DNA of 32,029 nt, from positions 1-32,029 of IMG/VR virus record IMGVR_UViG_3300032307_000479, one strand, 5' to 3'. The notes under the pieces were generated by a model, which saw only the letters and a list, made by a program, of their open reading frames with translations, was not told the DNA's origin and did no database searches. Below are positions 2,697 through 31,998 of the stretch, piece by piece. Within the stretch, counting starts at the first letter, position 1, and every line of letters begins with the position of its first letter. The DNA comes from a virus (taxonomy: Duplodnaviria > Caudoviricetes). The position numbers and the translations under genes are program-made.

Positions 2697-2738
2697 CGGT
2701 CCTCGTATCGCATAGGGTACGAGGATCGCCCGTTTTTT
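2697..2738 (+). terminator. intrinsic terminator-like hairpin
   Basis: 12-bp stem CGGTCCTCGTAT/GTACGAGGATCG (two G-U pairs) followed by CCCG and T6. Confidence 0.55.
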
Positions 2739-2751
2739 GACTCCCGCGTTG
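2737..2751 (+). promoter_or_regulatory. conserved 15-mer TTGACTCCCGCGTTG, putative late promoter (copy 1)
   Basis: Exact copy; 4 nt before the ATG at 2756. Confidence 0.75.
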
Positions 2752-2755
2752 GCAT

Positions 2756-3022
2756 ATGGCACGTCCGACGGGTTGTTTCCTTATTCTTTCCCAGGCTCGA
2801 ATCGAGGCCCTGGTCGAAAAGGCATACGAAAACCTGGCATCGGGCCGCGTCCTAATGAGCTATTCCGACTCCGGGACGTCCGTAAGCAAGGATTGGCCGA
2901 TGACGGTCGAGCAAGTCTTGGTCGAATGCCGCTACGCCCTCCAAATCAAGGACCCCCAACAGTATGGGGGTATCGACCGCGTCCGCGTCTATAACGGCCT
3001 TTGGAATTTCCGGGGCCTTTAA
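2756..3022 (+). CDS. head-tail joining protein (gpW-like position and size)
   Basis: 88 aa between TerL and portal; helix / beta-hairpin (VLMSYSDSGTSVSK) / helix pattern like lambda gpW. Confidence 0.65.
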   Translation: MARPTGCFLILSQARIEALVEKAYENLASGRVLMSYSDSGTSVSKDWPMTVEQVLVECRYALQIKDPQQYGGIDRVRVYNGLWNFRGL

Positions 3023-3030
3023 TTTGATCT

Positions 3031-4617
3031 ATGGCCCCCCAAAAGCAGGAATCCCTAAAGAAAAAGGTCCGCAAGGCGGTCCGCGACGTTAAGGAGCTTG
3101 CCAAGCGCAAGGGCCTAAAGGCCAAGGCGTTTTCCGGCGGCGGCGGGGGATCGGGCATTTTTTCCCAGTTTGAGGGGGCCAAGTATAGCAATAAGCGCCA
3201 ATGGGTTAATACTCCCTGGCCCGCCGACCAGAAGCGGGTAATGACGACGTTCGACCGCCAGGAGCTAACGCGGAAAATGCGTTGGTTGGCGGTTAACGCG
3301 GGGTTGGTCCGGCAGCTTATCGCCGATATGGCGATGTATTCGGTCGGTCCTGGTATCCGCGCCCAGGCCGCAACCGGCGACGCCAAGATCGACGAGCTTT
3401 ACGACGCCTATTTTTTCGATTGGGCAAACAAACCTTGCGAGATCACCGGGCGCTTTAACTTTTGGGAAGCTCAAACGCTAATGTCCCGCCGGGTCGATAT
3501 CGACGGCGAGATTTTCGTCCTTAAAACGTACAGCTCGTCCGGCGCTCCCCTTATCCAGCTTATCGAATCCCACCGCGTCGGGGCCTCCTCGACGGCCCAG
3601 GGCCAGGTAGACGGGGTTTACGACGGTATCATTTTCAATAAATTTGGGGCCGTGGTCGGGTATAATGTCATTCGATCCGATGGTACGAACCGCAATGTTT
3701 CGGCCAATTCTATCCTCCACGTCTACCACCCGGAAAGCGCCTCCGGCGCACGGGCATACAGTCCGCTGCAACATTCGATCAATAATTTGATCGATATCCT
3801 GGAGGTCCTATCCCTCGAAAAGGTTGCGATGAAGGTCCAGGCCGACGTCGTACGCACGATTACCCGCGAAAATCCGCAATTCGACGGGTCCTCCGCGGAT
3901 TTCGAGGCGTTCGGTATGCGTCCCCAGGATTACCCTAACCAGGTTTACCAAAACCCGGAGGAGGTCGGCGCATTTATTGGCGGTAAAACCGTCGCTTTGG
4001 CCCCCGGCGAGGACCTTAAAATGGTCGAATCAAACCGCCCTGGCCCGAATACGGTGGCGGCGATTGAATATTTGGAGAAGGATAGCTGCGCCGGTTTCCT
4101 CCCTTGGGCCTTTTCGGGCGATCCCACTAAATCGGGCGGCAGCGCAACCCGCCTGGTTGTCGCTAAAACCGAGCGCACGGTAAATTCCCGCCAGGATATG
4201 CTTATCCATAGGGCGCTTAACCCGATCTATGGCTACGTTATCGGTACGGCCATTGCCCGCGGCGAGCTTCCGGCGAATGATAATTGGACAAAGGTTAACT
4301 GGGTAACGCCCCGCCGTATCTCGGTGGACGCGGGCCGCGAGGCCGCCGCCAACCTGGCCGACATTACGACCGGCCTTAAGACCCTCTCGGACCATTACGC
4401 CGAGCTTGGTATGGATTACCGCCAGGAGGTCCGACGCCGAGCTGCCGACGCCAAGCTTATTAACGATACCGCGGACGAATTCGGCGTACCTCCGTCGTCG
4501 ATCTTTGCCCCGGCCAATACTCCCCTTGCCGACATTAACCAGGCCGCCGCCTCCGGTGGCAAACCTGGTCCCGGCGCAACCGATTTCCAACCCCTTTTCG
4601 AGGGCGAACCCTCTTAA
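3031..4617 (+). CDS. portal protein, lambda family
   Basis: 528 aa; motifs RWLAVNAGLV, VGPGIR, DIDGEIF, IQLIESHRV, W..P....VDAGREA; synteny. Confidence 0.93.
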   Translation: MAPQKQESLKKKVRKAVRDVKELAKRKGLKAKAFSGGGGGSGIFSQFEGAKYSNKRQWVNTPWPADQKRVMTTFDRQELTRKMRWLAVNAGLVRQLIADMAMYSVGPGIRAQAATGDAKIDELYDAYFFDWANKPCEITGRFNFWEAQTLMSRRVDIDGEIFVLKTYSSSGAPLIQLIESHRVGASSTAQGQVDGVYDGIIFNKFGAVVGYNVIRSDGTNRNVSANSILHVYHPESASGARAYSPLQHSINNLIDILEVLSLEKVAMKVQADVVRTITRENPQFDGSSADFEAFGMRPQDYPNQVYQNPEEVGAFIGGKTVALAPGEDLKMVESNRPGPNTVAAIEYLEKDSCAGFLPWAFSGDPTKSGGSATRLVVAKTERTVNSRQDMLIHRALNPIYGYVIGTAIARGELPANDNWTKVNWVTPRRISVDAGREAAANLADITTGLKTLSDHYAELGMDYRQEVRRRAADAKLINDTADEFGVPPSSIFAPANTPLADINQAAASGGKPGPGATDFQPLFEGEPS

Positions 4618-4628
4618 TCCCTACTTTT

Positions 4629-6053
4629 ATGCGTAATCTCTCAAACGATATCCGGGCCAATCGCCCCGTCCTTATCCAACCGATTATCGCCAAGGCATTC
4701 CTTGAGCGCTGCGCCGATATTAAGCTCCCCCTGGGGGCCAAGGCGTCGGATATGTCGGATATGCTGGCCGCGATTTTCGGCGCTAAATCGGCGCTGGAGA
4801 AATTCCCGCCCTTTGCAATCGTCCCGATCAAGGGCGTAATCGGTCGCAACCTTTCCGACCTGGAGGCCGCTTGCGGCGCTTGCGATCTGGAGGCCGTCGA
4901 GGAAATGTTGGAGGACGCGGAACGGGACCCCTCAATTACGACCATTATCCTGGACGTCGATTCCCCCGGCGGGTCCGCGGTCGGCGTGCCGGAGCTTGCC
5001 AAACGGGTCCGCGAATGCGGTAAGCGCACGGTTTCCTTTACCTCCGGCGATTGCTGCTCGGCGGCCTACTGGATTGCTTCCCAGGCGTCGGAATTCTACG
5101 CAACCCCCTCGTCCACCGTGGCAAACGTCGGTTGTTATATCGTCTTTAACGATATGTCGGCGGCCTATGCCCAGGAGGGCGTCGCAGTTGACGTTATCCG
5201 ATCCGGCAACCTGAAGGGCGCAGGAACGCCGGGGACCTCGCTATCCAAGGAGCAGCGGGACGATCTCCTGGCCGGTGTCCTTGAGATCGCCGCCAATTTC
5301 AAGGCCGACGTTAAGCTGGTCCGCGAATTCGTCCAGGACGCGGATATGGAGGGCCAATGTTTCTCCGGGGCCAAGGCCGCCGAAAAGGGGTTCGTTACCG
5401 CCCTAACCAACGGGTTCGACGAGCTTATGCAAAGCCTGGACGCCGAGGTTGCGGCGCAGATCGAGGCCAACGAGGCAAACGACGCCCGCGCCAATGTCGG
5501 CGGCGAGGCCGAGGAATCCGACGAGGAGGAGGGTATGGGCCGTATGGCTGCCGCCCGCGCCCTCAAGGGTATCCCTGGCGGTATCCGCGCCCTTATGGCA
5601 AAGGCCGAGAAATCCCCGGACGAGGAGGAGAAGGACGGTTCCGAACCGATGCCCAAGAAGGGAAAGAAGTACGGTAAGGCCAATTCCGACGAGGAGGACG
5701 ACGAGGACGAAACCCCGTCCGATCCCATTACCGACGACGACCAGGATAAGGATAAGCCCGAATCCGAGGAGGATAAGGACGAACCCAAGGCCGAGGACGA
5801 GGAGGAGGATGCCGACCAGCAACCCGAATCCGAGGACGAGGAAAAGGAACCCAAGGCCGAGGATAAGGACGAGGAAAAGCCCGAATCCGAGGACGAGGAC
5901 GATAAGGAACCCAAGGCCGAGGACCAGGATAAGGACGACGCCGACGCCAAGGAAAAGGCCGAGGAGGAATCCGACACCGGCGATAAGGCCGTCGAAACCG
6001 ACGAGGAACCGGAAAAGAAGGGCGTCCGCAACCGATCCCGCGGCCTCGCTTGA
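4629..6053 (+). CDS. prohead protease, S49 (SppA/lambda gpC-like), with acidic low-complexity C-terminal extension
   Basis: LDVDSPGGS, CCSAAYWIASQA and VANVGCY motifs; the last ~170 aa are D/E/K-rich repeats. Confidence 0.9.
   Translation: MRNLSNDIRANRPVLIQPIIAKAFLERCADIKLPLGAKASDMSDMLAAIFGAKSALEKFPPFAIVPIKGVIGRNLSDLEAACGACDLEAVEEMLEDAERDPSITTIILDVDSPGGSAVGVPELAKRVRECGKRTVSFTSGDCCSAAYWIASQASEFYATPSSTVANVGCYIVFNDMSAAYAQEGVAVDVIRSGNLKGAGTPGTSLSKEQRDDLLAGVLEIAANFKADVKLVREFVQDADMEGQCFSGAKAAEKGFVTALTNGFDELMQSLDAEVAAQIEANEANDARANVGGEAEESDEEEGMGRMAAARALKGIPGGIRALMAKAEKSPDEEEKDGSEPMPKKGKKYGKANSDEEDDEDETPSDPITDDDQDKDKPESEEDKDEPKAEDEEEDADQQPESEDEEKEPKAEDKDEEKPESEDEDDKEPKAEDQDKDDADAKEKAEEESDTGDKAVETDEEPEKKGVRNRSRGLA
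5750..5975 (+). repeat. imperfect tandem coding repeats (KPESEDE / EPKAED units)
   Basis: Recurring CCCGAATCCGAGGA and GAACCCAAGGCCGAGGA units inside the protease tail. Confidence 0.7.
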
Positions 6054-6064
6054 CTCCCGCGTTG
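6050..6064 (+). promoter_or_regulatory. conserved 15-mer TTGACTCCCGCGTTG (copy 2)
   Basis: Exact copy overlapping the protease TGA stop; A at 6069, ATG at 6082. Confidence 0.75.
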
Positions 6065-6081
6065 GTCTAATTCGTAACCGT

Positions 6082-6543
6082 ATGACCCTTGAACAATCCC
6101 TTAAGGCCCTAAAGGCCGCATTCGGCGCTAAATCTACCGAGGCCGAATCCGCGTCCAAGGAGCTTTCGGCGTCCAAGGCCAAGGTCGCCGCCCAGGCTGC
6201 GGAAATTTCCGATCTCTCGGAAAAGCTCGCCGCCGTTGCCGGTGTCGTCGCCGAAAAGGAATCCCTGGCCGCCAAGGTCGAGGAGCTTACCAAGGCGCTT
6301 GCCGCCGCTAACGAGCTTAAGGCCCAGGCCGCCGCGCAGATCGAGACGGTTGGCAAGGTCGCCGCCAAGATCGCCTCGTCGGTCGGCGTTGCCCCCGCAG
6401 AAATCTCCCCGGCCGATAACGTCGTCGCCAAGAGTAACGACGAAATTTGGTCCGAATATTGCGGCATTTCCAATCCCTCCGAAAAGGTCGCTTTTTACAA
6501 TAAGCACCGCGCCGCGATTGTCGCCCATCTAGGCATTAAATAA
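6082..6543 (+). CDS. capsid scaffolding-like coiled-coil protein
   Basis: Likely start is ATG 6082 (MTLEQSLKALK...), 153 aa, Ala/Lys/Glu coiled coil, directly before the major capsid gene. Confidence 0.7.
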   Translation: MTLEQSLKALKAAFGAKSTEAESASKELSASKAKVAAQAAEISDLSEKLAAVAGVVAEKESLAAKVEELTKALAAANELKAQAAAQIETVGKVAAKIASSVGVAPAEISPADNVVAKSNDEIWSEYCGISNPSEKVAFYNKHRAAIVAHLGIK

Positions 6544-6576
6544 CCCCCTTTCCCCCTAATCTCACCCTAAACTAAT

Positions 6577-7494
6577 ATGTCCAACTCCGTCCTTAATCAG
6601 GGTTTGGCCCCCCAGTTCGTCGCCGCCGAAACGCTGCGTACCCTGGTCCCGGTCCTCGCCCCCCTCAATAAGATCGTCACGACCGATTTCAGCGCCTACG
6701 TCGCCGAAAAGGGCCAGGTCGTCCATACCCGTTACGCCGACGCCTTTACGGCCTCGACGTACGACCGCGCTACCGGTTTCGTCGCCGAGGACGCCGTCTC
6801 TAACGACGTTGCGATCACTCTCTCGGACCATAACTACGTTATGACGTCCTTCACCGATACCGAGGTCGCCACGATCTCCCTCGATATGCTGCGCCGCGTC
6901 TTTATCGCCCCGATGGCTAACGCCACGGTTACCAGTATTTTCGACGGCGTTATCGGCCAGACCACCGCGGCCGCCTACCCTGGCACGCCCTTCTATTCCG
7001 GTACCAAGGCCAATTTCAACCGCCTCGCCGTTGCCGGTGGCGCTACCAATATGACCAAGGCGAACCTTCCGTTTAACGACCGTTCGCTCCTCCTCACCCC
7101 CGACGCTTTCGGCCAGCTCCTCCAGGACCCGTCCGTTGCCCAGTATCTCTCTATCGGTGATACCTCGGTTATCCGCGACGGTAAGGTCGGTCGCCTCCAC
7201 GGTATCGACATTTACGAGGTTAACACCTGGAGCGCTGCTCCTGCTGGCGAACACCTTAACGGTATCGCCTCCTGCCGCGAGGGCCACGTTATCGTTACCC
7301 GCGTCCCGGCCGCCCCGACGACCGGCGGTGGCGAACAGCTCACCGTCCAGGACCCGGATTCCGGTTTCGCCTTCTCCCTGCGTAGCTGGTACGATTGGAC
7401 CAAGGGCCTGTCGAATATCTCGGCCTCCTGGATTATCGGCCAGTCCGTTGGTAACCCCAACGCCGCCCTCCGCGTCGTTATCTCGGACCTCTAA
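6577..7494 (+). CDS. major capsid protein (HK97 fold, P22-coat-like)
   Basis: 305 aa; KGQVVH, R.LLLTPD and GKVGRLHGIDIYE motifs; strongly biased codon usage; followed by a strong terminator. Confidence 0.88.
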   Translation: MSNSVLNQGLAPQFVAAETLRTLVPVLAPLNKIVTTDFSAYVAEKGQVVHTRYADAFTASTYDRATGFVAEDAVSNDVAITLSDHNYVMTSFTDTEVATISLDMLRRVFIAPMANATVTSIFDGVIGQTTAAAYPGTPFYSGTKANFNRLAVAGGATNMTKANLPFNDRSLLLTPDAFGQLLQDPSVAQYLSIGDTSVIRDGKVGRLHGIDIYEVNTWSAAPAGEHLNGIASCREGHVIVTRVPAAPTTGGGEQLTVQDPDSGFAFSLRSWYDWTKGLSNISASWIIGQSVGNPNAALRVVISDL

Positions 7495-7517
7495 TCCTAA
7501 CGGGTTAGTCCGAAAGC

Positions 7518-7546
7518 AAGGCCCCCAATCGGGGGCCTTTTCTTTT
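7518..7546 (+). terminator. rho-independent terminator after the major capsid gene
   Basis: AAGGCCCCC-AATC-GGGGGCCTT followed by TTCTTTT. Confidence 0.9.
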
Positions 7547-7588
7547 GGGTAGGGCCGTAGACCCCTCCAGGCGGCCCGTAGCGGGCTT

Positions 7589-7603
7589 TTGACTCCCGCG
7601 TTG
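7589..7603 (+). promoter_or_regulatory. conserved 15-mer TTGACTCCCGCGTTG (copy 3)
   Basis: Exact copy; 4 nt before ATG 7608; preceded by hairpin GCCCG-TAG-CGGGC-TTTT. Confidence 0.75.
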
Positions 7604-7607
7604 CCAT

Positions 7608-7949
7608 ATGGGCCTTTACGACGCCGAATGGGCTGCCGACGCCGCCACGATCCTTGCGGAAATCCCCAAGGCCGTAACCGTTCGTCGCGGATCGGGCGCT
7701 CCAACCGCCTTTAACGTCCTAATGGGGCCGCCAATGGTCCAGCAAAACCTCGAAACCGGTGGTTTCCTTAATACCACGGCGTTCGACGTTAAGTTTTTAA
7801 AGGCCGACGCCGATCTCCATCCTGGGGTAATCGTATACGGTAACCTGGTGAATTATAACGGCCTTAATTACCGAATCGTCGCCATTAACGACCGTCCTCC
7901 GTCGGCCTGGGTTATCGTCCGCGTCGAGGGCGCAGCTGGTCCGGCATAA
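7608..7949 (+). CDS. head-tail joining / head closure protein (FII-like)
   Basis: 113 aa, beta-rich (YGNLVNYNGLNYRIVAI), first gene after the capsid gene. Confidence 0.6.
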   Translation: MGLYDAEWAADAATILAEIPKAVTVRRGSGAPTAFNVLMGPPMVQQNLETGGFLNTTAFDVKFLKADADLHPGVIVYGNLVNYNGLNYRIVAINDRPPSAWVIVRVEGAAGPA

Positions 7950-8845
7950 TGGCGACCACGGCCCGAAAAAACGTCCAGGTAGACGCCTCGGCGCTAATGG
8001 ACCATTTGCACGATTTTGCCTTGGTTATGGGCAAAAGCTTGGGCGAGGTCGTCCGCGACCAGGCGGCGCTATTCTGCCAGGATATGATCGCCTACTCCCG
8101 GCCCTTTTCCGGCAAAAAGCCCGGATCGGGGGCGACCGGCCAGGCCAAGACAACGGGTAACGATAACGTCAAAAATTCAATCCGTAAGATTTTCCGACCC
8201 GTCGATCTGGCGACCAAGGAGCAAATTGCCGCGGTCGGTAAGTACGAGGTTTTTAAAATGTGGACCAAGCGCAAGGGCGAGAGGGTCCAGGGGAAAGGTA
8301 AGGCCATTCGCTGGCAAGCTTTCCAACAGAAATACGGCGGCGGCCCTTCTATGGCGTTCGTCGATTCCGGCGACCTTTCGACCCTGGGGCGCATTCACCG
8401 ATCCCTGCGTACCGACAACGGACGCGGTTCCCTTTCGTCTACGGCCCGAAACGCATCGGAACCTTTTGCGATTGTCGCCAAGGATCGGGATATCGAGCGC
8501 TATATCCGGCAGCAGCAGAAAGACATTGGTACGCTAAAATCCGCGTATTACTTTGCCGGGGTCCAGATTAAGGGGAAAATCAAGGCCCCGGCCTGGGCGA
8601 AACAGGCGGGCGGGCGGGAAAATGCCATTGCCCAGGATAAGATCGGCCAACCTATGAAACCGGAGGTTACCATTGGTAACCTTATTGGCGGCAAGGCCGG
8701 TAACGATAAATTCGTTAAAATGGCGATTTCCCATCGGGCGTACGCTATGCGGGTTAAAATGGCCGCCGAGCTGAATAAGCAAAAGGTCCCCCTTTGGGTC
8801 GCCTCGGCCCGCGGCCAAACGGTCCGAACGGCCAAATATTTTTGA
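7949..8845 (+). CDS. putative neck / tail completion protein
   Basis: Basic 298 aa ORF between head closure and tail terminator; start overlaps the upstream stop (TAATG). Confidence 0.5.
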   Translation: MATTARKNVQVDASALMDHLHDFALVMGKSLGEVVRDQAALFCQDMIAYSRPFSGKKPGSGATGQAKTTGNDNVKNSIRKIFRPVDLATKEQIAAVGKYEVFKMWTKRKGERVQGKGKAIRWQAFQQKYGGGPSMAFVDSGDLSTLGRIHRSLRTDNGRGSLSSTARNASEPFAIVAKDRDIERYIRQQQKDIGTLKSAYYFAGVQIKGKIKAPAWAKQAGGRENAIAQDKIGQPMKPEVTIGNLIGGKAGNDKFVKMAISHRAYAMRVKMAAELNKQKVPLWVASARGQTVRTAKYF

Positions 8846-8849
8846 TCTT

Positions 8850-9287
8850 ATGCCTACCCTCTACGGAATCCGTACCATTGCCGAGCAATCGGCGCTTGCC
8901 TGGTTTACCCAAAACGCCGCGTACCTCCCTGGCGTCGAGCTGAATGCGGGCCAAACGGACGAAATCCGGTCCGTCCCGATTGTCATTTTGCACGCGGAAA
9001 GCGCCCGCGCTCACCCCGATCTTGGCGCTAACCCCCTGGGCAATTTCGAGATTACCCTTAAAATCTACGTCTATTCGTCCGCGGACGATTCGACATTGGC
9101 GCAGCACCGGGAACGGGTCGAGGCCGTCCAGGGGATTATGCAGGATGCCGACGGCCTTGCCGCAGCTTGGACCCAAGGGACCTTATACGCCTCTTGGGTC
9201 GTCTCGGACGACGAGGGGGTCGCAGATCGCCGGTACGGTAATATCGTCGAATATACCCTCGTCGCGGCCTATCCGGCCCAAACTTGA
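8850..9287 (+). CDS. putative tail terminator protein (gpU-like)
   Basis: 145 aa acidic alpha/beta protein immediately before the tail tube gene. Confidence 0.55.
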   Translation: MPTLYGIRTIAEQSALAWFTQNAAYLPGVELNAGQTDEIRSVPIVILHAESARAHPDLGANPLGNFEITLKIYVYSSADDSTLAQHRERVEAVQGIMQDADGLAAAWTQGTLYASWVVSDDEGVADRRYGNIVEYTLVAAYPAQT

Positions 9288-9298
9288 CTCCCGCGTTG
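9284..9298 (+). promoter_or_regulatory. conserved 15-mer TTGACTCCCGCGTTG (copy 4)
   Basis: Exact copy overlapping a TGA stop; A at 9303, ATG at 9320. Confidence 0.75.
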
Positions 9299-9319
9299 AT
9301 TCAATAACCGACCGACCTT

Positions 9320-9658
9320 ATGGCCCTCCCCCAAACTTTTGGCGTTTCCCACGTTTTCGGCGTCCTGGAATCTGGCATTTTCGTTACGATTCAAACGGAC
9401 TCCGTCGATCAGAAACCGGCGCTCGACGTTGAGGTTATGGACGAAACCGGCGTGGTTATTACGGACCGCCTGGACGACCAGCGCCTCGAAACCACGGTTT
9501 CTGGCGTCCTTAAGACGGGTACGACGGTCCCGACCGCGGGCGACCAATTCAATTACGACGGGGTTAATTACATTATCAAGGGCGTTACAAACGACGGTTC
9601 CAATAACGCTTTCCGCAAGGTTACCCTTAAGCTGGTTAAATACCAGGAGATCGCCTAA
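9320..9658 (+). CDS. putative major tail (tube) protein
   Basis: 112 aa, beta-rich, T/V/D-rich; has its own upstream 15-mer; precedes chaperone and tape measure. Confidence 0.6.
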   Translation: MALPQTFGVSHVFGVLESGIFVTIQTDSVDQKPALDVEVMDETGVVITDRLDDQRLETTVSGVLKTGTTVPTAGDQFNYDGVNYIIKGVTNDGSNNAFRKVTLKLVKYQEIA

Positions 9659-9676
9659 CCCGCGTAACCGACGCCC

Positions 9677-10276
9677 GTGGCCTCCCGTTGGACACAGGCC
9701 GCGACAATCCTGCGCCCCGAAATCGAGGTTTGCGGGGTTCGTCTATTGCCATTTTGCCTCCGGCATCGGGTTGCTTTGGAGGCAATCGAAAGCCCGATCT
9801 TGGATACGTCCAAGCCGCTTACCGCAAAGCATATGATTGCCGCGGTCCGTATCCTCTCGACGCACGACCTGGAACATATCCGGCGCCCCCATACCCTCCG
9901 CGAATCCTGGTGGATTGGCCGGTTGACGTTTTCCAATACCGTCCTTGCCCAGGAGGCCGCCAAGCTGCTGGCGTACCTGGAGGCGCAATCCCTTTGGCCG
10001 CGTTTCTGGACCAAGGACGAAAGCGAGGGCCGATCTGGCGGGGTCCCCTGGCCCTTGGCGATTGTCGCCAATCTAACGCGGAACGGTTGTTCCTTAACCG
10101 AGGCGTGGACGATGCCGGAGGCCGAGGCCGTTTGGCTGCACGTCGCCAATACCATCGCCTCCGGGGCCAAGGTCGAGCTAGTATCCGACGTCGAATGGGC
10201 CGCAATGGAGCGATATAAGGCCGAGGAGGCCGCCAAAGCTGCCGCCGCCCAAACCCCAGGAGATCGCAAAAACTAA
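9677..10276 (+). CDS. putative tail assembly chaperone
   Basis: GTG start; lies between tail tube and tape measure; C-terminal AWTMPEAEA resembles the T-segment of G/GT chaperones. Confidence 0.55.
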   Translation: MASRWTQAATILRPEIEVCGVRLLPFCLRHRVALEAIESPILDTSKPLTAKHMIAAVRILSTHDLEHIRRPHTLRESWWIGRLTFSNTVLAQEAAKLLAYLEAQSLWPRFWTKDESEGRSGGVPWPLAIVANLTRNGCSLTEAWTMPEAEAVWLHVANTIASGAKVELVSDVEWAAMERYKAEEAAKAAAAQTPGDRKN

Positions 10277-10278
10277 TT

Positions 10279-11514
10279 ATGGCAAACGACGTAAAAGTTA
10301 AATTTGGCGGGGATTTCACTGACATTGCCAAGGGGGCGGGCGAGGCGGTCAACCGCGCCGGGGCCTCCCTAACGGCCTGGTTTAACGATTTTAGGAAATC
10401 GACCGAGGCGTCGATCCTCTCGTCCCTGGCGCTTTCCAACATTTTTTCCAATTTCGTAAAGGGGGCCGCCGAAACCCTCCAGTATTTCCGCGAAATGGAT
10501 TTGGCCCTTAAACGGTTCGGGGGATCGGGGGACGCCCAATTTCAACAGCTTGCCAAATATGGCAAGGAGGTAGGGGTATCTATGGAAACCGTCGCCCGGA
10601 CGACCAATCATTTTAATAAGGTCCGCGCCGAGGCCGCCAAGGGTAACCAAACCTATATCTCCATTCTTAAGCAATTTGGGTTTACTCAAAAGGAGATCAA
10701 TTCCGGCAACATTTCCTCGATTGAGGTCCTTGGTCGATTGGCCGACGCATACGATAAAACCGGTTACGAGGGCCTGGTCGGCGAACGTGCGATGAATCTA
10801 TTTGGTATCCGCGGCAAGGAGCTTTCGGCGATCTTTAAGAATGGCCGGGAATCCCTGGAGGCGTTTACCAAATCAATGGCGACGATGTCGCGGGAATCCA
10901 TTACCAAGCTGTCGGAAACCCAGGCAAAGGTCGAATATTTGCAACGTAAGTTTAAAGAGACGTTCCAACAGGCCCCATTAGAAGGATACGCCGGATACCT
11001 TACCAGGCAACAGGCTGTTTCCGAAATTACCCGCGCCAGGGATCGGGCATTTGAAACCAATTTTTTCGGTATGCGTTCGGATAAAACCTCCGGCGGGGGG
11101 ACGATTGCCCAGCAAGCTAAATCGGACGCGGGTATTATTGTCAGCCAATTTGAGGGGTTCCTGCCTGGCATTAAGGAGGCGGCGGCAATTGCCAGCAATA
11201 AGGGGAGCTGGGAGGGCCAAAGCGAGAAGATCGTTAAATATATGGAGGAATTGGGCAAATCCCTTAACCTTTACGTTAAGCAAATGGAGGCTGCGCCAAA
11301 GGACAAAAAGGCGGGCCTCGAAATCCCCTTGGTTAAGGAGCTGCTTACGTCGTCGTCCCTCCAGGCAATCGGGGGCGGGGACATTTCCTCGGTGCTTTCC
11401 GGCACGGTCCAGGCCAGTATGCTAACCGCAATGCAGGAAACCGCGGCCAATACCGGCAAGCTCGCTGCGGAATCAGGCCAACCCGATCCCAACCCGCCTA
11501 ACGTCGCCAAATAA
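10279..11514 (+). CDS. tape measure protein (short)
   Basis: Helical 411 aa protein; N-terminal VKVKFGGD, AMNLFGIRGKEL, C-terminal SSLQAIGGG; synteny. Confidence 0.75.
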   Translation: MANDVKVKFGGDFTDIAKGAGEAVNRAGASLTAWFNDFRKSTEASILSSLALSNIFSNFVKGAAETLQYFREMDLALKRFGGSGDAQFQQLAKYGKEVGVSMETVARTTNHFNKVRAEAAKGNQTYISILKQFGFTQKEINSGNISSIEVLGRLADAYDKTGYEGLVGERAMNLFGIRGKELSAIFKNGRESLEAFTKSMATMSRESITKLSETQAKVEYLQRKFKETFQQAPLEGYAGYLTRQQAVSEITRARDRAFETNFFGMRSDKTSGGGTIAQQAKSDAGIIVSQFEGFLPGIKEAAAIASNKGSWEGQSEKIVKYMEELGKSLNLYVKQMEAAPKDKKAGLEIPLVKELLTSSSLQAIGGGDISSVLSGTVQASMLTAMQETAANTGKLAAESGQPDPNPPNVAK

Positions 11515-11515
11515 T

Positions 11516-12376
11516 ATGCCAGATCCCTCCGCAACCCGTAAAAGCTACGGTAATCCGTTAGTCGCCGCTACCGCCCTTCCCGTTGGGACGATTAGCGTAG
11601 ACGGATTCGGCCTCGCCCAGGCGCAGCAAAGTTTTACCATAGACTCTAACGACGCCGCAATCGGGGTTGCGTTAGAATCCTTCTCAAATGGGGAGATTTA
11701 CCCCTATGGTAACGGTATCCAAATGAAATCGTATAAGGTTTCCGCGTCCTATGGTAAGGGCGGGGTCGCTACCTTGGTCGTCGATTATATGGGCGTCGTG
11801 CCGGTTAGTGGGTATACGAGGCCGCAGATCACCGGGATTGCCACGTCCACGGCGCAGCCAATCGAGGCGCATCCTAACTTTACCAAGGTAACGTCCGAGG
11901 CCGCCGGTGGCGTCGTCCTGGCGGGATACCCCCCCTCCAACCTAGTTACGAACAATAAACCTATTTTCGTCCAATCGACCGATCCGTACGCTACTTGGAC
12001 GTTCCGCGGGTTCGGGCTGCGTACCGACGGCGAGGTAAACATTAAGGCCGGTATCCGGCAATATCTCGCCCCCCTGGCGACCCTCCGCGGGCAGATTTTC
12101 TTGGATTACTCAATGTCTAGCTCGGCCTCGGTTTTCCTACAATCCGTCGGGAAGCGCCTAACCAACGCCGACGTTTCCAAGCTCGTACAACCCTCCAACC
12201 TTGCCGGGGCGTTGGAATCCGAGGACCAAAATTACGCCCTCCTTTCGGCGGCAAACGCGGAATGCATCGGGAACCCCGACAACCTGGCGGCCATTAAAAT
12301 TACTTACGACATTATGGTCGGCGGCGAGATCGGTTGGGATAAAGACATTTACGGCCTAGCGCCGTCGATTCTCTAA
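11516..12376 (+). CDS. tail tip / distal tail structural protein
   Basis: 286 aa beta-rich ORF after the tape measure; PIEAHPNF motif. Confidence 0.55.
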   Translation: MPDPSATRKSYGNPLVAATALPVGTISVDGFGLAQAQQSFTIDSNDAAIGVALESFSNGEIYPYGNGIQMKSYKVSASYGKGGVATLVVDYMGVVPVSGYTRPQITGIATSTAQPIEAHPNFTKVTSEAAGGVVLAGYPPSNLVTNNKPIFVQSTDPYATWTFRGFGLRTDGEVNIKAGIRQYLAPLATLRGQIFLDYSMSSSASVFLQSVGKRLTNADVSKLVQPSNLAGALESEDQNYALLSAANAECIGNPDNLAAIKITYDIMVGGEIGWDKDIYGLAPSIL

Positions 12377-12377
12377 T

Positions 12378-13085
12378 ATGAATGACGCGGGTTTTAACGG
12401 AACCGGCTCCCGGTTTAACTCTCGTTTCGAGGCCGGTTCGCCGATCTACGCAAAGCAGCTTAACGATCTGGCGACCGGCATTCAATCGGCCTTGCCCCAA
12501 CCTTACGTCGGGTACGGCCCGTCGGTTTCCTTTACCCCTGGCGGCGGCATTATCGCGGGCGCTATGGAGGATACGCCGGTCGCCCCCGCCAAGGCGTATT
12601 GCCCATTTGAGATTTACGACCTCCGGAAATCGACCGAGGAGGGGACCGCGGGTAACTATTATATCAATATCGCCCCCGGAATGGTTAACAACCTGGTCGT
12701 TAAATCGGACGACGGCGAGCTGCTTACCAAGGACCCGCCCCCCAATATCCAAGTTTTTTCGGACGGGATTACCGCGCAAGGCGTAATTAATTACATCTAC
12801 GTCCGTTGCGGCAACAGCCAGCAGGGGGCGCAATACCCCGCCCGATCTGGCGAGGGATACCCGTCGGTCCGCGTAAGCGCCGAGCAGGACAAAATCAACG
12901 ACGAGGAATATTCGTATATCCTTATTGGGGCCGTGGTAGGCCAAAAGGTCCTTATCCCCGATACGGACCCGCCGGAATACCAGGAAATCCTCAATATTAA
13001 CCAGCTGATTGGCTGCAATTCGCTTTGGAGCGAAAGGTTTAAATGCGGGGCCGATCCGGTGGTTTACTGGTGGAGCGCCGTTTGA
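12378..13085 (+). CDS. virion tail structural protein
   Basis: 235 aa, tightly coupled within the tail operon. Confidence 0.5.
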   Translation: MNDAGFNGTGSRFNSRFEAGSPIYAKQLNDLATGIQSALPQPYVGYGPSVSFTPGGGIIAGAMEDTPVAPAKAYCPFEIYDLRKSTEEGTAGNYYINIAPGMVNNLVVKSDDGELLTKDPPPNIQVFSDGITAQGVINYIYVRCGNSQQGAQYPARSGEGYPSVRVSAEQDKINDEEYSYILIGAVVGQKVLIPDTDPPEYQEILNINQLIGCNSLWSERFKCGADPVVYWWSAV

Positions 13086-13086
13086 T

Positions 13087-14058
13087 ATGGCCCTACCTAA
13101 TCGAAAAGGGGTCGTTTATGTCTACCTGGCCGATCCTGATCGTTACCCGCAAGGCCAATCTGTGTTAAACGATACGGTTTTCGGCGACGAACAAAAAACA
13201 TATACCCCGCCCGATTCTCCTCCGCGCCCGCCTAAACAGGGGGATTTTTATTCTTATCGGGAGTTTTTTCCAGGATACCCGCCTGGGTTGGTCGTAAAGG
13301 TAGCGAGCAATATTCCTATTAACGGTCATTTTATCCAATTTGAATACAAGGTAGATATCGAGATTAAGTATCCTACCGGGGCCGAGGTCGCTTATAACCC
13401 GACCCCGCCGCCCGACGGCCCAGGCCAGCTCCCGCCCGACCCAAATGGAGAAACCGCAACGTACGAGGAGGACGTCCCTTGGTTAAATCTATTTATTACC
13501 CCGCGGTATTTTACCGACGAACCTTTTAGTTTTTCGTCCGGCGCAAATTACGATTGGTACGCCGGATCGGTTGTCCCCCTTAAAGACAATTCCTACCTGG
13601 CAAGCTCGGAAGGGACCGGCGCTCCCCGCAGCCCAATTACTTGGGAGGCCACCGTCGAGAATCTATTAACCAGGGTCCTAAACCTTGAGACGGACGAATA
13701 CGAGGAATACCCATATAAACAGGCGACGACCGATCTAAAGGTTAACGTCAAGGTACGGCCCAAGAAAATCGATAACAACATTTGCTGCTGGAATAAGGGG
13801 ACGGTTATTAACGGAAAGATGGCAATTTGGACAATCGACCTAACGACCAGGACGAACCCGGAAACGGGTTATTTTTGGGCCGGAATGTGGTACGATACCG
13901 GATCGACGTTTTCCCCTAATACCGAGCTTGATTGGTCGGTTACAATCGACGAGGGGTTTACCCCCGCAGAAATAGAAATCCCCCGGATTGCGGGTAAGGC
14001 GGCGTTTATTAACGATATTTGGATTACCTCGGTTACCCCGCCCGGACCCCCCGCATAG
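13087..14058 (+). CDS. virion tail structural protein (Pro/Tyr-rich)
   Basis: Likely start is ATG 13087 (MALPNRKG), 1 nt after the upstream stop; more AT-rich than its neighbours. Confidence 0.5.
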   Translation: MALPNRKGVVYVYLADPDRYPQGQSVLNDTVFGDEQKTYTPPDSPPRPPKQGDFYSYREFFPGYPPGLVVKVASNIPINGHFIQFEYKVDIEIKYPTGAEVAYNPTPPPDGPGQLPPDPNGETATYEEDVPWLNLFITPRYFTDEPFSFSSGANYDWYAGSVVPLKDNSYLASSEGTGAPRSPITWEATVENLLTRVLNLETDEYEEYPYKQATTDLKVNVKVRPKKIDNNICCWNKGTVINGKMAIWTIDLTTRTNPETGYFWAGMWYDTGSTFSPNTELDWSVTIDEGFTPAEIEIPRIAGKAAFINDIWITSVTPPGPPA

Positions 14059-14063
14059 GGGGT

Positions 14064-14078
14064 TTGACTCCCGCGTTG
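14064..14078 (+). promoter_or_regulatory. conserved 15-mer TTGACTCCCGCGTTG (copy 5)
   Basis: Exact copy; 4 nt before ATG 14083; preceded by hairpin CCCCC-GCATA-GGGGG-TTT. Confidence 0.75.
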
Positions 14079-14082
14079 GTCT

Positions 14083-14397
14083 ATGGCGTCCCCGACGGTA
14101 TCCTGGAAACGTGGCAGCACATTTGCGGCCTCGGTCGCCTATACCCCAGGCGCAGGGGACCCGGCCAGCTTGGCGGGGGTAACCGTCGAATGTTCCGTTA
14201 TGGACCATAGGGAGGTCCGATACCCCCTTATCGTCTCGATCCTGCCGGATAACCTCTCGTTTAACATCCTTTACCCTAGCGACACGTCCGAATGGGCCGC
14301 CGGGACCGCGGCGCTGGATTACCGATGCCTGGAGAATGGGGTCGTTTTTTATTCCACGACGGCCCGGTTTACAATCGAACCGCAAATTACCCTTTAA
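14083..14397 (+). CDS. BppU-N-like fibre adaptor protein
   Basis: 104 aa beta-sandwich pattern (KRGSTF...TSEWAAGTAALD...STTARFTIEPQIT) immediately before the fibre. Confidence 0.55.
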   Translation: MASPTVSWKRGSTFAASVAYTPGAGDPASLAGVTVECSVMDHREVRYPLIVSILPDNLSFNILYPSDTSEWAAGTAALDYRCLENGVVFYSTTARFTIEPQITL

Positions 14398-19191: not shown

Positions 19192-20490
19192 ATGCGCTAT
19201 GTATCCGTTTGCTCCGGAATGGAGGCCGCGACCGTTGCTTGGCATCCACTAGGCTGGACCCCGCTGGCCTTTTCCGAGATCGAACCCTTCCCAAAAGCTC
19301 TACTCCAACACAAATACCCAAATATCCCTAATTATGGCGACCTCACCAAATTCGACGAATGGCCCTTACCAGTTGGAAATGTGGACCTCGTCGTCGGGGG
19401 AACCCCCTGCCAAGCCTGGTCCGTCGCTGGAAAGCGATTGGGCCTCGACGATCCTCGCGGCCGCGTCGCCCTCGCATATGCTGGATTTATTGAAAAGCAC
19501 CGCCCCCGATGGATTGTATGGGAAAACGTGCCAGGCGTCTATTCTGCCGGTAAACCAGGGGGATCAGATTTCGCCGCCTTTGTCGGGACGTTGGCTAAAT
19601 TCGGGTATCATATCGCCTACCGAACTCTTAATGCTGAATACTTCGGAGTCCCGCAGCGACGCCGCCGATGCATACTTGTCGGATATCTTGGAGATTGGCG
19701 ACCTGCCGCGGCGGTACTTTTTGAGCCCGAAAGCTTGCGCCGGGATATTAAGAAGGGCCGAAAGAAGGGGGAAGGAATTGCCTCCGGCCCTCAAGGCGGC
19801 CCTGGTCCAAGCGTCGAATACTTCGATTTCCAAGCTATCGGAAAATACGGAAACGACGGATCGGCCTCGACCCTAATGGCCCGCGATTATAAGGACGCCA
19901 AGGACCTCGTTGTTAATCCCGTTTGCGCCACCGGGGAAACGACCCATTGCCTTACCTCGTCGCATCGCGGGTCCGAGGATGGAACGGGCCGAGGTACGCC
20001 TATCGTTATAGATCGGGCGGCCTTTAACCAAGGGGTTAATGCCCAATACGAGCCGCATATCGAGGCAACCGAAACGATGGATACCCTTATTTCCAAGGGT
20101 CCCCACGCCGTTGGCTGTTATCCTATTAATACCTTAACGCTAGGAGGCCGCCCCGACCCCGTTAATGATCGACGTATGACAATGGGCGTTGGAAACAATG
20201 GCGACCCTCAATTTACTCTCCAGGCCGCCCATTCCCACGCGGTCGCAACCGTTACCCCTATGGCCGTCCGTCGTCTAACGCCGGAGGAATGCGAGGCCCT
20301 CCAGGGGTTCCCCAAGGGGTATTCCCGAATCCCCTGGAAAGGTAAACCCGCCTCGGAATGCCCCGACGGCCCGCGGTACAAAGCTTGCGGCAATTCTATG
20401 GCCGTCCCTGTTATGCGCTGGGTCGGCGAACGCATCGCCCTCGTCGATAAACTCATTTCCCAATCCCAACCCGAACAACCCAAACCCTAA
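19192..20490 (+). CDS. DNA (cytosine-5) methyltransferase
   Basis: Motif I SVCSGME, IV GGTPCQAWS, VI WENVPG, VIII PQRRRR, IX RRLTPEECEALQGFP, X YKACGNSMAV; start at ATG 19192. Confidence 0.95.
   Translation: MRYVSVCSGMEAATVAWHPLGWTPLAFSEIEPFPKALLQHKYPNIPNYGDLTKFDEWPLPVGNVDLVVGGTPCQAWSVAGKRLGLDDPRGRVALAYAGFIEKHRPRWIVWENVPGVYSAGKPGGSDFAAFVGTLAKFGYHIAYRTLNAEYFGVPQRRRRCILVGYLGDWRPAAAVLFEPESLRRDIKKGRKKGEGIASGPQGGPGPSVEYFDFQAIGKYGNDGSASTLMARDYKDAKDLVVNPVCATGETTHCLTSSHRGSEDGTGRGTPIVIDRAAFNQGVNAQYEPHIEATETMDTLISKGPHAVGCYPINTLTLGGRPDPVNDRRMTMGVGNNGDPQFTLQAAHSHAVATVTPMAVRRLTPEECEALQGFPKGYSRIPWKGKPASECPDGPRYKACGNSMAVPVMRWVGERIALVDKLISQSQPEQPKP
19334..19876 (+). CDS. nested +1-frame ORF, putative methyltransferase beta subunit (M.EcoHK31I-like arrangement)
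   Basis: 180 aa, entirely inside the MTase gene; contains LSDILEIGDLPRRYFLSPKACAGILRRAERRGK. Confidence 0.65.
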   Translation: MATSPNSTNGPYQLEMWTSSSGEPPAKPGPSLESDWASTILAAASPSHMLDLLKSTAPDGLYGKTCQASILPVNQGDQISPPLSGRWLNSGIISPTELLMLNTSESRSDAADAYLSDILEIGDLPRRYFLSPKACAGILRRAERRGKELPPALKAALVQASNTSISKLSENTETTDRPRP

Positions 20491-22277: not shown

Positions 22278-22576
22278 TCGACGACGAACCCGACAGTTAC
22301 CTCGACCAGCTTTACCAGCAAAACGAGATTTTAGAAATGGAAATACAAACCCAATGCGACGAGAAGGAGAAGCTCCTCCAGGAAATCGAGCGCCTTAAAT
22401 CCGCGGCAAAACATCGTATTAAGGAGCTGCGGGCCGTTAAAGCCGCCGGTCGCCGTATGTATGATTTTATCGAGGAGGGGATTAGCGCCGACCTATTCCA
22501 CGACGAGGTCCTCGACGCCGCCAACCTGGCACAAGAAAAATGGTACGATATCGATACCAATCGTTTTAAAAAATGA
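22274..22576 (+). CDS. hypothetical coiled-coil protein
   Basis: ATG 22274, ATGA-coupled on both sides. Confidence 0.6.
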   Translation: MIDDEPDSYLDQLYQQNEILEMEIQTQCDEKEKLLQEIERLKSAAKHRIKELRAVKAAGRRMYDFIEEGISADLFHDEVLDAANLAQEKWYDIDTNRFKK

Positions 22577-23250
22577 ACGTCCTCGACCTATTTGCCGGAC
22601 TGGAGGGTTGGTCCACGCCATTCCGGGAACGCGGCCACCGCGTATTTTCTACCGATTTCGACCCCCAGTTTAAGGTCGATCTAGTTAAGAATATCCTGGA
22701 GGTTACCCCCGACGATATCCCTTTCCGTCCCGATATCATCCTGGCGTCCCCGCCTTGCGAGGCGTTTTCCGTAATGAATATCGGAAAGAATTGGACCGGC
22801 CCCGACGCCGACCCGCCCCATCAACCCAAGACAGATCGGGCCAAGCTCGGCCTCCAAATATTGGAAAGGACCATTTGGTTGGTCCAATGGCTGCGCCCGT
22901 CGTACTTCATTATCGAAAACCCGCGGGCGAAAATGCGTAAAATGCCCATTATGCAACAGTTTGAACGCCGGACGGTAACCTATTGCCAGTATGGTATGCG
23001 TTGGCAAAAGCCGACCGATCTATGGGGCGGGTTCCCTCCTTCCCTAGTCCTCCGGGATATGTGCCAACGCGGCGCCCCCTGCCACGAGGCCGCCCCCCGC
23101 GGTTCCTCAACGGGTATCCAGGGTAAACATAGCGCCGAGCAGCGGGCCGTCGTACCTCACCAGCTTTCGGAACAAATTTGCATCGCCGCCGAGGCCGACC
23201 TGGCCGCCGGTCGTCCTTACCGACCCCTTTACCTTTTCCCTACCGAATGA
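22573..23250 (+). CDS. second, compact DNA cytosine methyltransferase-like protein
   Basis: VLDLFAGLEG, ILASPPCEAFS, IIENP, YCQYG...KPTDLW. Confidence 0.85.
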   Translation: MNVLDLFAGLEGWSTPFRERGHRVFSTDFDPQFKVDLVKNILEVTPDDIPFRPDIILASPPCEAFSVMNIGKNWTGPDADPPHQPKTDRAKLGLQILERTIWLVQWLRPSYFIIENPRAKMRKMPIMQQFERRTVTYCQYGMRWQKPTDLWGGFPPSLVLRDMCQRGAPCHEAAPRGSSTGIQGKHSAEQRAVVPHQLSEQICIAAEADLAAGRPYRPLYLFPTE

Positions 23251-31274: not shown

Positions 31275-31998
31275 AAGGGGGATATCTGGATTATGTCCTT
31301 ACTTGACCAAACCGCCGTCCATTCCGGCCCAATATGCTTCCTGGTGGAGATCACTAACGGCCCAGGATAGGCGTCTCTTAATCGCTAAAAAGCTATTCGA
31401 CCCGTCCGACCTGGCCGGGGATAAGCGCCAAGATCGGTCCCGCGTTAACGATGGTCATTTCGATTTCAGTAGGTCCGAGGAGGAGAATACCTATAACCGT
31501 CCAGGTAAGCAGGGTAACCTAACGACCATATCCAAATCCGCGGCCGAGGAGGTATGCCAGTCCGAGGAGGTAACCCTGGCCTCCCTCGACCCGCGTATCG
31601 AGCAGCTGGACCTTGCCTCCTTCCGGTTGCGGGCAATGCTGGAGTTTCTCCTGGACGGACTGGACGCCTCGACCGATCCCGCAATGCGCCTTAAGGCCGA
31701 CGTTATCCGCATCGTCGTCGGGGAGGGCCGCCCTCCTCGTATGTCGGAGCTGGCAAAGGTCCACGGCCTTACCCGATCCGCGGTTTCCCTCCAATGTCGG
31801 AAACTATTGCGCCGTATGGGTCTACCTCCGTCGCGGTATATGCGTCCAGAGGATGAGGTTACGACGATGCGGGTCGCCTACCTGGTCCGGCAAGCTGCCT
31901 CCAATCATAAAGAGGGCGACAAAATCGAGAAAAACGGCAAAAAAGGGCGTTTTTCTGCGGTACGGCCCCCCCGTACCCCCGGTAAGGAATCTATTTAA
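31267..31998 (+). CDS. sigma70 region-4-like HTH protein, putative late transcription regulator
   Basis: RMSELAKVHGLTRSAVSLQCRKLLRRMG; last gene before cos and the late genes; the true start may be TTG 31303. Confidence 0.6.
   Translation: MIKRGISGLCPYLTKPPSIPAQYASWWRSLTAQDRRLLIAKKLFDPSDLAGDKRQDRSRVNDGHFDFSRSEEENTYNRPGKQGNLTTISKSAAEEVCQSEEVTLASLDPRIEQLDLASFRLRAMLEFLLDGLDASTDPAMRLKADVIRIVVGEGRPPRMSELAKVHGLTRSAVSLQCRKLLRRMGLPPSRYMRPEDEVTTMRVAYLVRQAASNHKEGDKIEKNGKKGRFSAVRPPRTPGKESI

Follow-up and report, generated by a model that had tools for sequence, protein, structure and literature searches.

Introduction

What starts transcription at the five identical 15-nt boxes that head late genes in the virus record IMGVR_UViG_3300032307_000479, and which protein reads them? 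The record comes from a freshwater phage (Duplodnaviria; Caudoviricetes), is estimated to be 97% complete and carries every annotated gene on the + strand; the whole stretch of 32,029 nt (hereafter the window) was analysed. Bacterial RNA polymerase (RNAP) is usually considered to require a −10 element plus a spacer of ∼17 bp, and the usual distance of a −35 word before the start is 36 nt or more. An initial annotation read the boxes as compact late promoters whose −35-like TTGAC lies only about 19 nt from the start. Our results suggest that the boxes are probably activator-dependent compact late promoters read by host RNAP. They keep their core sequence and spacing among relatives, are restricted to phage late genes and co-occur with a protein family. 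The new element of this work is a protein that likely reads the compact box, namely the product of the open reading frame (ORF) at 31303–31998.

Five identical boxes in the late region

All five boxes lie on the + strand. Box 1 (2737–2751) precedes a gpW-like gene, named by position, and then the portal and protease genes; its predicted +1 is the A of the ATG at 2756. Box 2 (6050–6064) has its predicted +1 at 6069, followed by a 13-nt leader (6069–6081) and the ATG at 6082 of a scaffold-like gene, after which comes the major capsid gene (6577–7494). Box 3 (7589–7603) has its predicted +1 at the A of the ATG at 7608. Box 4 (9284–9298), with its predicted +1 at 9303, a 17-nt leader (9303–9319) and an ATG at 9320, heads a gene that is tail-tube-like by position, and box 5 (14064–14078) has its predicted +1 at the A of the ATG at 14083. 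Named PHROG or Pfam matches back the genes called terS, terL, portal, protease, capsid, tape measure and tail protein. The labels gpW, scaffold, neck, tail tube and adaptor of the initial annotation follow from gene order only, since none of the five boxed ORFs matches a named family in PHROGs or Pfam.

A motif scan of both strands recovered the five exact copies, all on +, at the places first reported. The only other matches to the 15-mer in the window carry 3 mismatches (17416 on + and 18785 on −). Seven matches were reached in 0/100 shuffles, and 2e-5 exact copies are expected under an order-2 Markov model. TTGACT occurs five times on the + strand, each time in a box (0.8 expected), and never on the − strand. 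Each copy is followed by 4 nt and then by an A, which opens the ATG at 2756, 7608 and 14083, and the leaders of 13 and 17 nt hold for the scaffold-like and tail-tube-like genes. The early region carries no copy.

The initial annotation also held that the boxes do not fit sigma-70 geometry, and we agree: a consensus scan finds none of them, the ATG lies at 19 nt, and −11 is C in 85/102 leaderless sites of the relatives described below. The −35 hexamer itself is present, with TTGAC invariant and a sixth base of T or A in close relatives, and the boxes lack a 16–18 bp spacer followed by TAnnnT ∼7 nt before +1. As previously claimed, no phage polymerase is apparent, with neither an RNAP nor a sigma factor annotated among the 47 ORFs scanned. 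The window also contains two C5 cytosine methyltransferase genes (19192–20490 and 22573–23250). Methylation of the boxes is conceivable because the box contains CCCGCG and the phage encodes these enzymes.

Conservation of the box among relatives

We compared orthologous upstream regions, counted as distinct sequences from 78 loci that were found with the capsid protein and are not independent of one another. TTGAC precedes 209/209 ortholog upstreams of the five boxed genes (34/34, 52/52, 48/48, 46/46 and 29/29 for boxes 1–5, respectively) compared with 3/404 for eleven other late genes. The spacing proposed for the leaderless genes is kept as well: the first T lies 19 nt from the ATG in 102/111 leaderless sites and 20 nt from it in 5/111, and the base at −1 is a pyrimidine in 102/102. 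In the two leadered genes the ATG distance is variable, mostly 29–40 nt from TTGAC, and it is a pyrimidine–A step that stays in place, with a pyrimidine at position 19 in 90/98 sites and an A at position 20 in 88/98 (in 6/98 the script had taken an inner TTGAC as its anchor). A pyrimidine–purine step kept at one distance is a signature of transcription starts. Since the distance is fixed to this step rather than to the codon, the arrangement resembles a transcription start, and a plain ribosome-binding signal is ruled out.

The claim that the 15-mer is invariant holds within one phage and fails across relatives, which carry at least 30 variants (the commonest is TTGACTCCCGCGTAG). The difference between copies of the box is 0.49 nt for 251 pairs from one and the same phage versus 2.42 nt for 4079 pairs that compare the same gene between phages, and the copies are identical in 13/23 loci with at least 4 sites. 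The consensus of close relatives is TTGACT-SCC-GCGTWG-NNN-Y, then A, and the parts that stay constant across relatives are TTGAC(T/A), the distance and the pyrimidine–A start. This suggests that the functional core is TTGAC(T/A) plus spacing and not the full 15-mer. Single matches to the 15-mer in unrelated contigs lack the spacing.

Two other readings of the sequence were tried and rejected. TAnnnT at positions 13–18 does not serve as a −10 element, as T is found at position 18 in only 50/102 leaderless sites and +1 would fall inside the gene. A sigma-54-like reading fails because, set against the general sigma-54 consensus, TGGC/TTGC is absent and the distance is wrong. The base before TTGAC (2736, 6049, 7588, 9283 and 14063 in the window) is T in 102/102 leaderless sites and C in 90/98 leadered sites; this difference may reflect terminator T-runs or a tuning of strength. 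A literature search on late promoters of Verrucomicrobia phages and on leaderless late promoters with a conserved motif found no paper on the element, with incomplete coverage of subscription papers.

A candidate late activator

The initial annotation supposed that a phage factor redirects host RNAP, and a candidate for it is now at hand. It is encoded at 31303–31998 (+), the final gene before terS, with a TTG start codon at 31303 according to homolog alignment. The structure model of its conserved C-terminal domain (about 31570–31905, +) has five helices and a predicted local distance difference test (pLDDT) value of 95, and suggests a helix-turn-helix (HTH) resembling sigma region 4 with the recognition helix TRSAVSLQC (31771–31797, +). 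Sigma chains make up 36 of the 44 Foldseek rows listed, judged by entry titles. The full-length model is poor (pLDDT 64.5), and a wide fold search with it gave only generic helices. We speak of a predicted DNA-binding protein with a sigma-region-4-like HTH.

No PHROG or Pfam family matches the ORF, no match to it or to a prophage homolog occurs in the GenBank phage collection, and none was found among named Atlas clusters. A profile search gathered 950 clusters at 50% identity, from Verrucomicrobiota prophages. Among 144 family members the helix T-R-A-A-V-S-K-R-C is conserved in 99–142 per position; the corresponding helix reads TRERIRQ in the host sigma and TREAIRL in the homolog of locus L348. 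Sigma region 2 is matched in 1/144 members (P0227, a probable assembly chimera), and because it is otherwise absent the candidate is not a sigma factor. One 122-residue homolog consists of the HTH domain alone. We also considered the N-terminal YASWW as a counterpart of sigma region 2.3 (YATWW in the host sigma) and rejected it, as it is spaced differently in the prophage clade and is missing from short homologs. Among PDB sequences the family profile matches best the repressor HTH of a cluster A mycobacteriophage (7r6r, E 0.0032, 22 residues), which we take as a lead only.

The 80 genome loci with a homolog include 76 titled Verrucomicrobia, 2 Kiritimatiellae or Lentisphaerales and 1 Thiodictyon. 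Given the 76, the host of this phage is likely a verrucomicrobium.

The HTH domain occurs twice in tandem, with the first copy degenerate, in six members (P0131, P0133, P0150, P0153, P0154 and P0266). Near the end of the record, GGTAAGGAATC (31981–31991) recurs in 14/284 loci, and a similar word precedes the late region of locus L396; it is possibly a packaging (cos) site. The PGKES tail of many homologs is accounted for by this word.

Co-occurrence of box and protein

Each of the 11 capsid-gene loci with enough sequence on the upstream side carries a homolog, and the other loci appear to stop short. Distant homologs (23–30% identity) belong to otherwise different phages, in which TTGAC(A/T) lies 19–22 nt before late-gene ATGs and no −10 word is shared. 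Across 120 loci found with the protein, TTGAC stands 19–22 nt before 77/826 ORFs downstream of its gene versus 8/828 upstream. A box is seen in 41/62 loci whose downstream part is at least 8 kb long (by a crude gene caller that takes the first ATG). A separate TTGAC peak at 52 nt falls within the coding end of the candidate regulator gene in 6 of the 8 examples listed.

Host genes show no excess of this geometry. TTGAC lies at 18–23 nt before 3/366 host ORFs (3.2 expected; 480 kb from two genomes), compared with 5–7 of 73–76 ORFs in four prophage windows (0.4–1.1 expected). Four whole genomes (G001–G004) together contain 74 matches at the 19-nt spacing; the control spacings of 16 and 25 nt give 22 and 32, respectively. 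Of the 30 matches in G001, 22 lie in prophages, with 19 of them within 40 kb of three homologs and 3 in a fourth prophage, and 8 lie outside prophages versus 5–7 in controls. The conserved motif is thus confined to late genes, as in phage-specific late promoters. Both box and protein are absent from the Akkermansia phage Moulinsart. This co-occurrence would fit a dependence of the boxes on the protein, with two exceptions, discussed below.

Canonical and compact spacing in the P8625 group

The cultured phage P8625 (NC_029047; locus L315), from a Puniceicoccales host, has a similar gene order and carries TTGACA exactly 36 nt before four genes. It has no homolog of the candidate activator (best E 0.006–0.011, to an unrelated HTH). 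We assembled 39 P8625-like loci by terminase, independently of the candidate protein. Before the gene that precedes the portal gene, TTGACA lies at 36–43 nt in 30 loci and at 21–22 nt in 5, and is missing in 4. A homolog was found in 0/11 canonical loci that extend 2 kb or more ahead of terL. Of the compact loci, 3/3 that reach far enough carry a 122-amino-acid homolog directly before terS (E 2e-7 to 2e-6). As 36 − 19 = 17, the compact form equals a canonical leaderless promoter minus its 17-bp spacer. In a terminase tree of 22 sequences, the compact and canonical states are interleaved across several lineages.

P8625 thus has canonical leaderless sigma-70 promoters, which resemble the compact form in a TTGACA before the same late genes and a start at or near the ATG. 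They differ from it in their spacing of 36–43 nt, in an A/T-rich −10-like region and in the absence of a homolog of the candidate activator. An inverted repeat, GTATC ... GATAC, covers the spacer and −10 of the P8625 late promoters upstream of 5448, 10772 and 15594, and this suggests a different regulator in that group.

Hairpins and the terL–gpW gap

Terminator-like hairpins precede two boxes. The first (2697–2738, +) has a T-run that extends into the TT of box 1, and the second (7518–7549, +) lies 3′ of the capsid gene, 40 nt before box 3. Farther upstream in the terL–gpW gap there is a conserved promoter-like site of canonical geometry (2625–2652, +; TTGACA, 16 nt, CAnnTT). In 34/40 relatives a second TTGAC(A/T) lies 120–139 nt before the gpW-like ATG, and at this upstream site A occupies position 24 in 37/40 and T position 28 in 38/40, which corresponds to a canonical −10. 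From here a candidate noncoding RNA of ∼80 nt (about 2659–2738, +) would run to box 1. It holds no conserved peptide; its hairpin 1 has a conserved GGCAU-type core (37/40), its hairpin 2 has the T-run leading into box 1, and the median folding z is −2.1 in 36 sequences. An Rfam search of 2560–2800 gave no match. The stretch 2625–2738 is a candidate small RNA or put-like element, and its tie to the mechanism of the boxes is putative.

Proposed mechanism

The initial proposal, in which a compact late promoter starts transcription at the A, is supported by the spacing, the pyrimidine at −1, the A at +1, the hairpins before two boxes and the canonical −35 word in P8625-like phages. We infer a +1 at the A, an action of the protein at the boxes, and host RNAP as the enzyme. 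TTGACT would then occupy −19 to −14, without a spacer and one base before the −12 to −7 window. The protein of 31303–31998 would switch the boxes on, and host RNAP would begin each transcript at the A that lies 19 nt downstream; three of the mRNAs would then be leaderless and two would have a short leader.

Two modes of action can be considered: (i) the phage HTH itself binds TTGAC and replaces sigma region 4, or (ii) the phage protein moves host sigma region 4 onto TTGAC, as the lambda Q protein does at its pause site. We lean slightly towards the former because the recognition helix is near-invariant in a very divergent family and TTGAC is the only word common to all boxes. In the Q-lambda loading complex, sigma region 4 has moved away from the tip of the flap; it contacts a −35-like site directly upstream of region 2 and displaces region 3 (PMC9388147). 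With this precedent, which is documented only for a paused elongation complex, the compact geometry would be physically possible. A bolder version has, in our judgement, rather less than an even chance: the family would be a free-standing substitute for sigma region 4 that binds the −35 word beside the melting region and permits initiation by host RNAP without spacer or −10. The boxes would then represent a new class of bacterial promoter, acquired or given up by phages through deletion or restoration of the 17-bp spacer.

Several observations weigh against activator-dependent promoters of this kind. The −12 to −1 region is G+C-rich and lacks a usable −10 in many clades, there is no A at −11, distant clades share no −10 word, and the melting of such a stretch is left unexplained by the model. 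The structural likeness to sigma is weak: the best Foldseek match, to domain 4 of sigma-A (4g8x_A), has E 0.05 with none ≤0.001, and the best VIA match, to a primary sigma, reaches Z 5.6 with an rmsd (root-mean-square deviation) of 4.8 over 78 aligned residues. Among the 144 family members Pfam assigns 27 to MarR_2 and 19 to Sigma70_r4. Variants of the downstream half of the box do not pair one-to-one with variants of the recognition helix (about a dozen loci hold both). By the first-ATG caller 21/62 regulator loci lack a box, of which at least 7 do show boxes. The fourth G001 prophage (L396 and L404, 3.89–3.93 Mb) has boxes ahead of five late genes, at 19–21 nt, and lacks a homolog within 80 kb, although the three copies elsewhere in this genome could act on it in trans; likewise, L368 has four boxes at 20–22 nt, and the 2.2 kb before terL contain no homolog. 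As the compact P8625-like loci form one clade, their spacing switch counts as one event. Finally, one metatranscriptome run contains 5% of the words and yields ten short contigs that carry no 5′-end information.

Alternative explanations

An unlikely alternative, though the strongest of those considered, keeps the boxes as compact late promoters and gives them another reader, such as a host alternative sigma factor or activator or a different phage protein, so that 31303–31998 merely travels with the late module or acts, for example, as a repressor. The two homolog-free sets of boxes just described would fit this, as would the mycobacteriophage repressor HTH as best PDB match and a second gene of sigma-70 type encoded in G001. 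However, the box geometry is not in excess before host genes, gain of the homolog accompanies compact spacing in the P8625 group, and a position directly before terS is typical of late activators such as Q, RinA and ArpU.

Less probable by a clear step is an element that works at the RNA level, i.e. a processing or translation-start signal in longer late transcripts, whose 5′ ends would thereby come to lie at a constant distance from UUGAC. The G+C-rich region without a usable −10 agrees with this, and so do the tight link to start codons and the lack of a Shine–Dalgarno sequence in most late genes of the window. However, the leadered genes keep their distance to the pyrimidine–A step and not to the ATG, two boxes follow terminator-like hairpins, the orthologous P8625-like site is a canonical −35 word, and the co-occurring protein is a predicted DNA-binding HTH protein.

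We consider it very improbable that the boxes are pause or loading sites for a Q- or AlpA-like antiterminator acting on transcripts started upstream, e.g. from the canonical promoter at 2625. In its favour are the TTGACT one base before a hexamer, as in the lambda PR′ pause geometry, AlpA as second VIA row (Z 5.4, rmsd 4.6, 81 aligned; a weak match), and the conserved promoter, short RNA and terminator ahead of box 1. Against it, each genome has five boxes, which lie at gene starts and show an exact pyrimidine–A step; box 1 and box 3 stand after terminator-like hairpins and not before them; a −10-like pause word is lacking; and 4/5 boxes have no second TTGAC(A/T) nearby.

Comparison with known systems

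Known phage late activators of host RNAP include Mu C, P2 Ogr, P1 Lpa and RinA/ArpU, and T4 appropriates sigma through AsiA and MotA. The window would have in common with these systems that a phage without RNAP relies on a small protein that binds DNA and on a set of conserved late promoters. In the promoters of those activators the sigma-70 −10 is kept and the −35 replaced; in the boxes, by contrast, the −35 word is kept, lies 17 bp closer, and the −10 is lost.

The system of Q-lambda shares with the proposed one the gene for the regulator just ahead of the late genes, the word TTGACT and a phage late regulator that keeps sigma region 4 bound to a −35-like site just upstream of region 2 (PMC9388147). 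Peculiar to Q-lambda are read-through of terminators and a single site, where RNAP pauses early in elongation, with its −10-like and Q-binding elements, whereas the window has five sites per genome at predicted starts and no −10-like word. At the protein level the candidate activator yields one sub-threshold row to Q (E 0.17) and no Pfam or PHROG match to Q.

The stoperators of cluster A mycobacteriophages are likewise numerous, oriented, asymmetric intergenic sites that are uniform within a phage (PMC9283540, PMC5712189). The L5 consensus, GGTGG(c/a)TGTCAAG, contains CTTGACA on the opposite strand (PMC5712189), and an arginine of the repressor helix contacts a guanine (PMC9283540). The HTH of this repressor (TRQAVSW) is the best PDB match named above, over 22 residues only. 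Stoperators differ in being repressive, in numbering about 24 and in having no fixed distance from start codons (PMC9283540, PMC5712189); the five sites of the window stand at a fixed distance. The Thermus phage Lalka27a also combines many late promoters of a phage-uniform motif with the absence of RNAP and sigma genes, and its promoters have a −10 element, TAGGGT, 6 nt before mapped starts and no displaced −35 word (10.64898/2026.04.20.719267).

Gene order of the window

The annotated genes, all on +, begin with terS (94), terL (764), portal (3031), protease (4629) and capsid (6577), followed by the tape measure (10279) and a tail protein (14398), and then by methylases, Erf, an exonuclease and a helicase. 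The C-terminal tail of the head protease (5450–6050) is long, acidic and repetitive.

Significance

If initiation takes place here without spacer and −10, these boxes form a new promoter class; otherwise they would be phage-specific promoters served by a phage late activator. If the proposed mechanism is true, transcription would be started in a new way, by a −35 word alone at −19 together with a protein of 120–230 residues, and synthetic biology would gain an orthogonal switch of very small size. The mechanism would also give a name, that of late-gene regulator, to the large unannotated family of 950 clusters in phages of an abundant and little-studied phylum.

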